Assembly: GCA_036229005.1 (NCBI GenBank)
Contig: JAZAMN010000065.1
Coordinates: 1 to 56,462, forward strand
From: Myxococcota bacterium
GTDB taxonomy: Bacteria > Myxococcota_A > UBA796 > CAJQPC01
DNA: 56,462 nucleotides
Direction of reading: 5' to 3'
Below are positions 44,868 to 53,593 of the stretch, piece by piece. Within the stretch, counting starts at the first letter, position 1. Every line of letters begins with the position of its first letter. A program made the translations under genes and the position numbers. The notes below the pieces were generated by a model that made no database searches, was not told the DNA's origin, and was given only the letters and a program-made list of their open reading frames with translations.

Positions 44868-45584
44868 ATGTCGGACGACACCCTCGATCCCCTGGGCGCG
44901 GTCTCGCGCAGTCAGCTCCACTTCTTCTGGATCGCCGACTGCTCGGGCTCGATGCGCATGCACGGAAAGATCCAGGCGCTCAACAACGCGATCCATGAGT
45001 GCTTGCCCGCAGCTCGGGAGGCCGCGGAGGCCAACCCCTTCGCTGAGATGGTGATGCGCGCCATCAAGTTCAGCTCGGGGGCCGCCTGGCACGTCAAGGA
45101 GCCCACCCCGGTGGACGACTTCGTGTGGCACGACCTGACCGCGATGGGGGTGACCGACCTGGCCGCCGCCCTGCGCCTGCTGCGCGAAGAGCTGACCCCC
45201 GAGAAGATGGGCCGCCGGGCCCTCCCGCCGGTGATCGTGCTGCTCTCCGACGGCGCCCCCACAGACGACTGGGAGCACGCGCTGATGGAGTTCAATGACA
45301 CGGGCTGGGGCCGCGCTGGCCGCACCGTGCGCGTGGGCATCGCCCTGGGCAAGGACGCCGACAAGGCGGTGCTCGCCAAGTTCACGGGCGCGGACGAGAC
45401 CGTGTTCGAGGCCAACAACGCCCAGCGGCTCACCGAGCTGATCAAGTGGGCCAGCGTGACCCTGTCCAAGTTCGCCAGCTCCGGGGCCTCCCAGGTTGGG
45501 GGCTCGGGGGACACCGGGATGCCTCTGCCGCCGCCGCCCCCGGTGGCTGTGGTCGCGGACGACGACGACGACGACACCTGGTAG
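44868..45584 (+). CDS. TerY-family vWA domain protein
   Basis: HFFWIADCSGSM.MHGKI..LN MIDAS, GVTD and LSDG.PTD. First gene of the triad. Confidence 0.9.
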   Translation: MSDDTLDPLGAVSRSQLHFFWIADCSGSMRMHGKIQALNNAIHECLPAAREAAEANPFAEMVMRAIKFSSGAAWHVKEPTPVDDFVWHDLTAMGVTDLAAALRLLREELTPEKMGRRALPPVIVLLSDGAPTDDWEHALMEFNDTGWGRAGRTVRVGIALGKDADKAVLAKFTGADETVFEANNAQRLTELIKWASVTLSKFASSGASQVGGSGDTGMPLPPPPPVAVVADDDDDDTW

Positions 45585-45587
45585 CAA

Positions 45588-46433
45588 GTGTCCGAGCCCG
45601 AGCTCACAGAGGAGACCGCAGATCAGCCCACCGAGCTCGGTGCGGCGACGCACGCGCCGTGGCAGGTCGCGGGCGCCTCGGTCACCGGGGCCAAGCACGT
45701 GGTCGCCGACAAGCCCTGCCAGGACGCGCTGCTGACCTTCGCGGATGAGAGCTGCGCGGTGGTCGCGGTGGCCGACGGGCACGGGGATCCGCGCCACGCC
45801 CGCTCCGACGTGGGCTCAAAGCTGGCCTGCGAGGTCGCGGTGGGCTTCATGCGCGAGCTGGCCGCTGACATCAACAGCCAGAGCCGCCACTTCAAGGAGT
45901 GGGAGCGCGAGCTGCGCCTGCGCGTGCCGCGGCACATCAGCTTCCGGTGGAACCGCGCGGTCCGGGAGCACGCCGGCCACGAGCAGCCGGACGGCGTCTG
46001 GCATCAGGACGTTGACCTCTACGGCACCACGCTGCTCGTGGTGCTCCTGACGCGTCGGTGTGTGGTGGTGTACCAGCTCGGTGATGGCGACCTGGTCCTC
46101 GTCGGTCCCCAGGGGGTGCGCTGTGCCTTCCCGCCCTCCGATGAGCTCTTCGGGACGCTGACCTGGTCGCTGGCCATGGCCAACGCGCCCGAGAAGGCGG
46201 ACCTGGTCTGCATGGACCCCCGCCAGCTCCGCCTGGTGATGGCCTGCACGGATGGGATCCGCGACGCCTTCGCCAAGAACCCCGAGGCCTTCATCGAGGT
46301 CGGCCGCTGGATGCAGCAGCGCCTGACCGACGAGTCCCTGGAAGAGGTCCAGGCCAGCCTGCCGGAGTGGCTCAGCGAGCTCTCCCGGCGGGGCAACGGG
46401 GACGACGCCACCTTGGGCCTGCTGCGGCTCTGA
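45588..46433 (+). CDS. PP2C-like protein phosphatase (TerY-P triad)
   Basis: SVTG.KH....PCQDA, VADGHG, GTTL, LGDG, CTDG and DDAT motifs. Confidence 0.92.
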   Translation: MSEPELTEETADQPTELGAATHAPWQVAGASVTGAKHVVADKPCQDALLTFADESCAVVAVADGHGDPRHARSDVGSKLACEVAVGFMRELAADINSQSRHFKEWERELRLRVPRHISFRWNRAVREHAGHEQPDGVWHQDVDLYGTTLLVVLLTRRCVVVYQLGDGDLVLVGPQGVRCAFPPSDELFGTLTWSLAMANAPEKADLVCMDPRQLRLVMACTDGIRDAFAKNPEAFIEVGRWMQQRLTDESLEEVQASLPEWLSELSRRGNGDDATLGLLRL

Positions 46434-46469
46434 ACGCCGCGCCGCCGAACGAAACGGAGAGAGCTCACC

Positions 46470-51928: not shown

Positions 51929-51941
51929 GGGGTCTCTTCCT

Positions 51942-52325
51942 TCATCCTGTGGCCAGCACCTGGGCGATGCTGCCGTCTCGCGCCTGGATCAGGCGCGCTT
52001 CACGCTCTTGGGGGGTGTCGGCCTGGGCGGGGCCGGCTTCGACGACCTCGGCCCACAGCTCCAGCGCCCAGATGGCCCAGCGCATGGCCATGGCGCTCTG
52101 GGTGGAGAGCTCACGGGCCAGACGGTTGAGCTCCCGGCCGTCGTGGTGGAAGGACATCAAGGTGTCCACGCAGCCGCGCTCGGCGGCCTCCACCAGGACC
52201 GAGACCTCGCGCAGGTCCTCGGGGTGCAGGTCCCGGAGGAAGGCCTCCAGGCGCCGGGGGTTCTGGTGCAGGCGCGGGGCCTGGGCCAGCAGCCGCTTGA
52301 GGGTGGGGCGCAGCTCGGCGTTCAC
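51942..52325 (-). CDS. Small helical protein, stand-alone copy of the N-terminal domain of the neighbouring WD40 protein
   Basis: PRRLEAFLRDL.P...E..VLV.A...G...L...RL...L.......A.WA...WA aligns with the WD40 N-terminus. GTGA coupling. Confidence 0.75.
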   Translation of the reverse strand: MNAELRPTLKRLLAQAPRLHQNPRRLEAFLRDLHPEDLREVSVLVEAAERGCVDTLMSFHHDGRELNRLARELSTQSAMAMRWAIWALELWAEVVEAGPAQADTPQEREARLIQARDGSIAQVLATG

Positions 52326-53593
52326 TCGGCCTCCACGGGGGCGGGGGCGGCAAAGACCATCTCGCGGACCTGGGCCTGCCCGTTGCCGAAGCCGAAGGCC
52401 AGGTGGCCCATGGGGTGCTGGTCCAGAGCGGTCACCCGGCGGCCCGTCTCGAAGCGCCAGAGCTCCTTGGGCTGGTCCAGGCTCCAGACGCGCACGGTCT
52501 TGTCGACGCCGGCGCTGGCGAGCCCCCGGTGGTTGGGGTGCAGGACGACCGCGCGCACGGCCCCCTGGTGGCCCTGGTACTCCAGGCGCTGGGTGTCGGT
52601 GCGGGTGTCCCAGCTCCGCAGGCCGCCCTCGTCACCGATCACCATGCGGCCGCCGGCGCCCAGGTCCACGCAGGAGCTGCCGGCGGTCGTGACCCGGATC
52701 CGACGGCGCAGGGTAGGGAGCTCCAGGACCATGACCTCGCCGACGGAGGCCACTGCCAGCCCGGACTCAGCGATGCGGAGTCCAAGGATGGGCTCGGTGT
52801 GCTCGAAGACCTGGACCAGCTCCAGCCCCTCGACCCGCCAGAGGCAGACCTGCCCGTCCACCCCGCCCGAGGCCACCCACTGACCATCGGGGGAGAAGTC
52901 CACGCAGAGCGCGGCGCCGCGGTGACCGGCCAGGCGGTACATGCGCTCCTGGGTCTTGGGCTTCCACAGGCGGATCGCGCCGTCGTCACCGACGCTGGCC
53001 AGGCCCTCGCCGTCGGGGCTCCAGGCCACCCCGCGCACCCACTCCCGGTGACCGCCCAGCAACAGGGCCTTCTGGCGGCCGGAGCGGCTCTCCCAGATGC
53101 GCAGGGTGCGGTCCAGGCTGCCTGTGGCCAGGTGGCTGCCGGTGGGGGAGAAGCGCACGCACGACAGGGCCTTGCGGTGGCCTTTGAGGGTGTGGGCGCG
53201 CTTTCCGGGTTGGTTGGGGACCTGCTGGGCGATGCGGCGCTGCAGAGGCTGGACTGTGGCGCTGGGGGGCTCCTCTGGGCAGCTCCGTTGCAGGGCCGCA
53301 GCCCAGGCGCGGGTGGCCCAGACGGCGTGGGAGAAGTCGAGGCCAGCGTGGTCGGTCAGGCGGTGCACCAGCCGGTCGAACACCATGGCGGGGACCTGGG
53401 GGCTGGCGTCCTGCGCGAGGTCTGCGGCGACCCCCTCCCGGACCGCGACGTGTGCGGCGACGCAGGTGGACGGGCGGCCGGGGAACTGGCGTTCGAGCAG
53501 GGTCGCGACCTTTCTCTGGTCCAGGCAGATCTCCTCGCCCTGGTCCAGGATGAGCTCGGAGAGAGCGTGCTGCACTGCGCTTCGGTCGGCCAC
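52322..53593 (-). CDS. WD40-repeat protein with N-terminal helical domain
   Basis: Multiple GH...V.FSP.G..LA.G..D.T.R.W repeats. GTG 53593 proposed as start. Confidence 0.92.
   Translation of the reverse strand: MADRSAVQHALSELILDQGEEICLDQRKVATLLERQFPGRPSTCVAAHVAVREGVAADLAQDASPQVPAMVFDRLVHRLTDHAGLDFSHAVWATRAWAAALQRSCPEEPPSATVQPLQRRIAQQVPNQPGKRAHTLKGHRKALSCVRFSPTGSHLATGSLDRTLRIWESRSGRQKALLLGGHREWVRGVAWSPDGEGLASVGDDGAIRLWKPKTQERMYRLAGHRGAALCVDFSPDGQWVASGGVDGQVCLWRVEGLELVQVFEHTEPILGLRIAESGLAVASVGEVMVLELPTLRRRIRVTTAGSSCVDLGAGGRMVIGDEGGLRSWDTRTDTQRLEYQGHQGAVRAVVLHPNHRGLASAGVDKTVRVWSLDQPKELWRFETGRRVTALDQHPMGHLAFGFGNGQAQVREMVFAAPAPVEAE

Follow-up and report, generated by a model that had tools for sequence, protein, structure and literature searches.

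A ZorB-less, Zorya-derived ZorA-ZorC operon associated with a TerY-P triad in a Myxococcota bacterium

RESULTS

A ZorA-ZorC operon converges on a TerY-P triad

We analyzed a 56,462-nucleotide stretch of DNA from a Myxococcota bacterium (contig JAZAMN010000065.1 of assembly GCA_036229005.1; the window) and found, at positions 44868 to 53593, a TerY-P triad converging on a four-gene operon that encodes homologs of the Zorya proteins ZorA and ZorC together with a WD40 protein and a small helical protein (Table 1). Judged by homology, the locus is derived from type I Zorya but lacks ZorB and ZorD and has an altered ion filter and EH motif. These differences touch the working parts of the system, as each of ZorB, the ion filter, the His of the EH motif, and the C-terminal domain of ZorC is required for defense by E. 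coli Zorya, according to the accessible part of its description (PMC11946911). A preliminary description, made from the letters of the window alone, had proposed that ZorA-like and ZorC-like genes lie here without zorB or a helicase and form, with the triad, a seven-gene hybrid defense locus, in which a phospho-switch and a WD40 sensor may have replaced the motor partner and the nuclease. Our open reading frames (ORFs), Pfam matches, and AlphaFold models agree with its seven genes, its spacings, and the three helices of the 991-residue protein, and its two Zorya assignments were borne out, as was the absence of zorB and zorD.

The 991-residue protein is a homolog of ZorA, collinear with it from the membrane domain to the tail tip according to profile and model comparisons. 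A profile of nine orthologs matches E. coli ZorA (8QYK, E 1.6e-11; 8QYD, E 1e-10) in two places, residues 14-387 and the tail tip, and its next-best match (E 2.7e-4) falls far below. The AlphaFold model of residues 1-260 (pLDDT 87.3) has helices at 15-49, 124-142, and 147-196 and matches the MotA fold; in a Foldseek search with this model, EcZorA takes ranks 1-4 (E 4.7e-4 to 2.3e-3, TM ~0.3), and Shewanella ZorA, TolQ, and ExbB stand in the rows below. Hydropathy alone gives one clear and one marginal membrane segment, the three helices coming from AlphaFold. In single-sequence scans, the N-terminus of the window protein alone drew no ZorA or MotA match, that of one homolog matched PADLOC ZorA1 (E 4e-5), and ZorA1 profiles of PADLOC matched the tail of the window protein weakly (best E 1.2e-7). 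A single ZorC1 profile gave a likewise weak match among the locus proteins (E 0.002). The ZorA-like tail repeats with an 11-residue period, with 50% self-identity at lag 11 over residues 430-560. Full-length orthologs range from 924 to 1460 residues and share an almost invariant ZorA-type tail tip.

The polar filter of ZorA is degenerate in this protein. EcZorA Thr147 and Ser184 align with Ala136 and Leu155, and Ala and Leu fill the two positions in all four rows of the window genus (the window protein and three congeners). The Thr-Ser pair is kept in 6/6 canonical ZorA proteins with a zorB neighbor in the same alignment, in which the rows of genus g63 (genomes, contigs, loci, genera, and families carry our own G, C, L, g, and f numbers) align poorly. 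Between the two positions lie 13-29 residues in the clade versus 34-71 in canonical ZorA, a shortened periplasmic loop. In E. coli Zorya, the ZorA T147A/S184A double mutant and ZorB D26N each abolish defense (PMC11946911, accessible part).

No zorB or zorD accompanies the operon

We define a carrier as a genome with a ZorC-like gene; a match in G023 (E 7.6e-4) was excluded, no other operon gene lying nearby. The 16 bp between the zorA-like stop and the zorC-like start in the window are the upper bound of a constant feature: in all 14 carriers, the two genes overlap or are at most 16 bp apart, leaving no zorB between them. Relatives with an intact EH motif are organized otherwise. A 401-genome sample of the phylum gave nine EH-bearing matches outside the clade, of which eight were read and one (G306, at a contig edge) was left out. 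Six of the eight loci have the order zorA-zorB-zorC with an Asp-bearing ZorB helix, one is cut by the contig end inside a zorB-like ORF, and one lacks a resolved arrangement; the four neighbors tested at EH-intact loci are SNF2 helicases. No helicase follows the operon at our locus, and no locus protein has a PADLOC match to ZorE, ZorF, or ZorG, which, together with the missing zorB, sets it apart from Zorya types II and III.

No orphan zorB was found in the host genome (6.4 Mb, 94% complete). Its 21 OmpA-domain ORFs include two MotB-type genes, and both follow a motA-like gene of their own, one pair inside the flagellar cluster and the other outside it (G000 C14:26931-28381; also in G003). 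No zorD was found at the locus or elsewhere in the host genome, whose four SNF2-like proteins have DpdE or DrmD as their best-scoring profiles; for two canonical control proteins, the best-scoring profile is ZorD1. A ZorB-profile search of 10 other carriers gave MotB/OmpA-type matches in all 10, and all 14 matches inspected adjoin their own ZorA or MotA partner; six inspected loci, in g63, g64, g65, and g67 genomes, are separate zorA-zorB pairs. The idea that the ZorA-like protein borrows a B subunit in trans has no positive support.

Several Zorya-type arrangements were seen along the way. In two g63 genomes (L098:4509-7358, L099:1701-4484), a zorA-zorB pair sits among housekeeping genes with no adjacent zorC or zorD match. 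In G147 and G144 (L095:1660-4955, L096:4236-7263), zorA-zorB is followed by a gene for 243-262 residues that the ZorC profile does not match. A same-family genome has a canonical Zorya I (L055:8995-16992) with an SNF2 gene upstream of zorA, adjoining type I restriction genes; a vWA gene lies ~14 kb off on that contig.

The ZorC-like protein retains the EH core and ends early

Sequence profiles and the predicted structure both identify the 363-residue protein as a homolog of ZorC, the similarity spanning the EH core. A profile of 16 sequences found 84 proteins among 1.84 billion representatives. Among 50 scanned relatives, 10 exceed the cut-off of the EH_Signature Pfam family and 6 more score below it, all of them among the more distant rows; the window protein itself is below that cut-off, and a PF15611 search of the host genome gave no match. 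A 52-row profile matches E. coli ZorC (8R68; E 9.6e-12), and the alignment brings the Glu and His of the EH motif into register. The AlphaFold model has a pLDDT of 94.7, and a VIA fold search of 48,161 chains placed 8r68 at the top (Z 9.5, 297 residues aligned), the runner-up having Z 7.2 with 87 residues. No relatives came from two metagenome scans, and our profile A2 matched no solved structure.

In the window protein, Glu312 of the EH motif is retained and the His is absent (EcZorC Glu400 and His443). Glu and His occur together in 0/23 of the closest rows versus 27/29 of the more distant ones; among the closest, 19 have the Glu and 13 have Arg in the His column. At 363 residues versus 560 for E. 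coli ZorC, the protein terminates where the C-terminal globular domain would begin. Both the EH motif and that domain are needed for DNA binding by E. coli ZorC (PMC11946911, accessible part). We infer that DNA binding has been lost here, and the protein remains basic (57 K+R versus 42 D+E). Two carriers have further truncated genes without the EH region (G121, 256 residues, L021:2462-3232; G142, 274 residues, L028:3361-4185).

The triad kinase co-occurs with the operon

TerY-P comprises a vWA protein, a PP2C phosphatase, and a Ser/Thr kinase with a zinc ribbon, in the accessible text of PMC11090510, which cites Anantharaman 2012 and Gao 2020. The three adjacent genes here correspond to that definition in content and order. 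TerY-P kinases carry a C-terminal zinc ribbon or OB-fold, and the zinc ribbon of the kinase here has four invariant Cys residues and a weak Pfam match. The catalytic loop of this kinase reads YKDINLGG (window 46905-46935, residues ~147-154), with Gly in place of Asn, as do those of all 12 clade kinases and of G087; two other TerY-P kinases have YRDISFGN. The Gly loop, Lys, catalytic Asp, and DxDN are retained.

An orthologous kinase (E<1e-150, 53-85% identity) occurs in 12 of the 154 genomes of the order. All 12 are carriers, none of the 140 non-carriers has it, and two more distant TerY-P kinases are found in non-carriers. Trees of the 12 kinases and of the 14 ZorC-like proteins, to which long-branch and composition warnings apply, each show a single clade (95/96 and 100/98, respectively) and agree in their subgroups. 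Seven carriers have the triad on a different contig, and in G003 a marR/SnoaL-like two-gene insertion separates it from the operon. Taken with the helical domain described below, this co-occurrence supports a link between the operon and TerY-P, as read from gene content.

A second type of kinase was seen beside the operon. In both g65 genomes (L019:2129-3433, L020:3493-4788), the zorC-like gene is immediately followed, with an overlap, by one for a membrane-anchored Pkn-type Ser/Thr kinase, and G147 has its ortholog ~5 kb from the operon. This proximity may be due to chance, since such kinases are common (63 tblastn matches in the host genome).

A helical domain is duplicated in the operon and recurs near TerY-P

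A profile of the 127-residue protein matches the N-terminus of the WD40 protein, both in the window and in relatives, so that, by profile comparison, the two are copies of one helical domain. The 127-residue protein has no Pfam, PADLOC, or NCBIfam match, and neither it nor three homologs gave a relevant match to a named Pfam model of the effector-associated domains (EADs) of Kaur et al. 2020. The architecture in which the helical domain occurs, a constant N-terminal domain with a variable C-terminus, is alike in kind to that of EADs.

In the phylum sample, the helical domain is present in 8 genomes and a TerY-P kinase in 13, with both in 7. Outside the clade, the domain occurs in four genomes, three of which have a TerY-P kinase (versus 9/397 overall) and two of which have the domain adjoining the triad. 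In G087 it begins a DUF4011/DUF3320 SF1 helicase-nuclease that is divergent from a TerY-P triad, and in G484 it begins the gene immediately after the triad kinase. G249 has it at the start of FGE-sulfatase and Lcl proteins, with the triad on another contig, and G245 has it once, with no triad. Such an arrangement, in which the domain stays the same while its partners near TerY-P vary, is what would be expected of a putative docking module. These occurrences are more independent support for the link to the triad than is the kinase co-occurrence among related carriers. No longer fusions and no plasmid copies of the domain were found, which is weak evidence. High-GC members of the 127-residue family end in a conserved S-x-I-T/S-x-R-P-G-T/S-L-x-x-V-L tail (window 51942-52000), a possible phosphorylation or docking site.

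The operon is patchily distributed and under purifying selection

The 14 carriers belong to three of the seven families of the order: four genomes of genus g1, one of f6, and nine of f7. Nine carriers have the whole operon on a single contig, four have it broken between two contigs within the zorA-like gene, and in the 59%-complete G142 just two of its genes were seen. The arrangement of the four minus-strand genes is not due to chance, because the same order is kept in relatives down to ~20-30% identity. Operon GC ranges from 0.47 to 0.73 across carriers, 0.01-0.05 above that of the flanks.

The operon genes are under purifying selection. In three close genome pairs, dN/dS is 0.03-0.17 (kinase, 0.03; operon, 0.06-0.17), four of the five G141-G138 comparisons being saturated. 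Between the window and G003, it is 0.18-0.54 (operon genes, 0.33-0.54), a comparison in which, at 70% GC, the estimate of synonymous distance is probably too low. Neighbors are stable within genera (hemB/pyrC/ABC exporter at the window; ABC genes and prfC, or RNase G/recD/efp/valS, in g63), and none of the genes observed next to carrier loci is a pilus or flagellar gene. The locus looks like a long-resident module rather than a mobile island.

Layout of the locus

Each of the seven genes is single copy in the host genome. The converging stops of the kinase and the 363-residue gene are 28 bp apart. The WD40 frame stays open up to 53683, and the GTG start at 53593 was chosen from the starts of homologs. 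As single sequences, the 991-, 363-, and 127-residue proteins received no Pfam name, and the last two no NCBIfam name. Atlas searches gave unnamed clusters alone. An ABC exporter and a hybrid histidine kinase flank the locus, and farther out are ORFs that, read by eye, we take to be hemB, dihydroorotase, and IF-3. Elsewhere in the window, ARAGORN called a selenocysteine tRNA on the minus strand (32023-32123), and a lower-GC patch (41666-42969; 0.59 at 42001-43000) contains two small ORFs, one with a weak HExxH/M48 peptidase match.

Table 1. Genes of the locus, in window positions
Feature	Position	Strand	Basis
TerY-like vWA protein, 238 aa, DxSxS (MIDAS-type) motif	44868..45584	+	Pfam VWA above cut-off; orthologs in carrier genomes 69-92% identical
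PP2C-type phosphatase (TerY-P), 281 aa	45588..46433	+	Pfam PP2C_2, E 3e-33
TerY-P Ser/Thr kinase, 448 aa: kinase domain, CxxC...CxxC zinc ribbon, small C-terminal domain	46470..47816	+	Pfam Pkinase above cut-off; weak Zn_ribbon_3; alignment, tree
ZorC-like protein, 363 aa: EH-signature core, without C-terminal globular domain	47845..48936	-	Profile, AlphaFold, fold search, motif columns
ZorA-like protein, 991 aa: three-helix MotA-fold membrane domain and ~790-aa helical tail	48953..51928	-	Profile, Foldseek, alignment
Stand-alone unnamed helical domain, 127 aa; candidate adaptor	51942..52325	-	Alignments, distribution
WD40 beta-propeller protein, ~423 aa; N-terminal ~120 aa (53234-53593) are the helical domain	52322..53593	-	Pfam WD40, E 2e-46

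DISCUSSION

The locus combines elements of two known systems. With type I Zorya (8QYD, 8R68; PMC11946911, accessible part) it shares homologs of ZorA and ZorC and the placement of zorA ahead of zorC in one operon. It differs in lacking zorB and zorD at the locus, in the Ala/Leu filter, and in having lost both the His of the EH motif and the C-terminal domain of ZorC; its tail protein is longer (991 versus 729 residues), WD40 and adaptor genes stand in front, and no defense island surrounds it. The triad has the same three genes in the same order and the zinc-ribbon kinase of TerY-P, but its kinase belongs to a distinct YKDINLGG clade and its partners are Zorya derived rather than CoCoNuT/McrBC or helicase-nuclease. 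The nearest TerY-P relative is the one in G087, where the kinase shares YKDINLGG and the DUF4011/DUF3320 helicase-nuclease begins with the same helical domain; at our locus, that domain sits on the WD40 protein and on a stand-alone protein, with no helicase or nuclease. The MotA/ExbB/TolQ stators share the membrane fold but not the long cytoplasmic tail, the missing B subunit, or the degenerate polar filter. In the literature, we found no description of a ZorB-less ZorA-ZorC operon or of its link to TerY-P, although supplementary neighborhood tables may contain one. The preliminary description had mentioned an association of EH_signature operons with TerY-P; the literature covered, the 2012 Ter paper apart, contained no confirming statement.

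We tentatively favor a model in which ZorA and ZorC form a non-rotating membrane scaffold coupled to the TerY-P phospho-switch, which would signal envelope damage by phosphorylation instead of DNA cutting; it may well be correct, short of being probable. The ZorA-like protein would form a membrane-anchored ZorA-type oligomer with a long cytoplasmic rod, neither conducting ions nor turning. The ZorC-like protein would cap the conserved tail tip as an adaptor, having given up DNA binding, and the stand-alone and WD40-borne helical domains would dock this scaffold to the vWA-PP2C-kinase triad, which would set the phosphorylation state. Envelope damage, probably from phage attack, would tip the kinase-phosphatase balance, and the phosphorylated targets would give the response; accessible literature yielded no identification of TerY-P kinase targets. 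The scaffold is likely coupled to the triad, by a putative physical link, and a defense role is plausible. The wider proposal, that a Zorya lineage traded its input motor and nuclease output for a phosphorylation circuit and that the helical domain is a general TerY-P address tag for variable partners, is more doubtful.

Several observations weigh against this model. The surroundings are housekeeping genes and the GC is host-like, unlike a typical defense island, which weakens the defense proposal of the preliminary description, and no effector gene is encoded in the locus. The seven-gene hybrid of that description survives in part: all seven genes are present here, but the triad converges on the operon in just 5 of the 14 carriers (four g1 genomes and G121), and there is therefore no fixed seven-gene locus. 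The TerY-P link it proposed is likewise upheld by co-occurrence and the shared domain and qualified by G145 (89% complete), which, like G142, has the operon and no vWA, PP2C, or kinase match. The carriers are also related: f1 contributes a single genus, f6 one genome, and f7 four genera, its non-carriers being only two genera. Fisher values for co-occurrence are overstated because of this kinship, and the shared trees partly mirror common descent. Kinase activity is not assured, because the catalytic-loop Asn is replaced by Gly in all 12 clade members. Among 13 rows of the clade alignment, Thr stands at the first filter position in one and Ser or Thr at both positions in four; filter loss is therefore not universal. 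Finally, the ZorC fold match is modest (rmsd 8.0), and Foldseek places ZorC only at rank 11 (E 0.011), behind armadillo repeats.

Some of the same observations invite other explanations. The single-copy locus with stable housekeeping neighbors, its host-like GC from 47% to 73%, the slow evolution of the kinase, and the absence of a nuclease would fit a scaffold and phospho-switch domesticated for a non-defense task such as cell architecture, polarity, motility, or contact signaling. We consider this unlikely: the distribution is patchy (14/154 genomes, 3/7 families), both parent systems are anti-phage in the accessible parts of their reports (PMC11946911; 10.1101/2022.08.12.503731, the latter for TerY-P), and no carrier locus has pilus or flagellar genes beside it. 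The scaffold and the triad might instead be two independent modules, acquired at the same time and passed on together; the ZorA/ZorC operon would then have no need of TerY-P, and the convergence would be historical. The two lie on opposite strands, are unlinked in 7 of the 12 genomes that have both, are separated by the insertion in G003, and part company in G145; independent lineages are few, and TerY-P has been described both on its own and as an accessory module (PMC11090510, accessible part). This explanation is about as improbable as domestication, given that the kinase clade never occurs without the operon (0/140) and that the helical domain independently adjoins TerY-P in G087 and G484.

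It is still less probable that the ZorA-like protein is an ion-driven motor using a MotB or ZorB encoded elsewhere. Candidate partners exist, namely, the two host MotB-type genes, the MotB/OmpA-type matches in 10/10 other carriers tested, and the separate zorA-zorB pairs at six loci, and 4/13 clade rows keep two hydroxyls; yet the host genes and 14/14 of the relatives' matches have their own ZorA/MotA partner, and the window genus combines an Ala/Leu filter with a short periplasmic loop. Least credible of all is a decaying Zorya relic without present function. The losses of zorB, zorD, and key residues, the truncated ZorC-like genes in G121 and G142, and the dN/dS of 0.33-0.54 between the window and G003 operons would suit decay, but the frames are open and their order is kept over three families, dN/dS is 0.06-0.17 in close pairs, the tail tip is near-invariant, and the ZorC-like model is confident (pLDDT 94.7).

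With purifying selection still acting on ZorA and ZorC after the loss of ZorB, the filter, the EH His, and the C-terminal domain of ZorC, this lineage would offer a natural experiment on the roles of the tail and of ZorC in the absence of rotation or DNA binding. The duplicated helical domain is a concrete candidate for how the triad attaches to its partners, and, if the job of the locus is not defense, these bacteria may have turned a defense machine to routine use.

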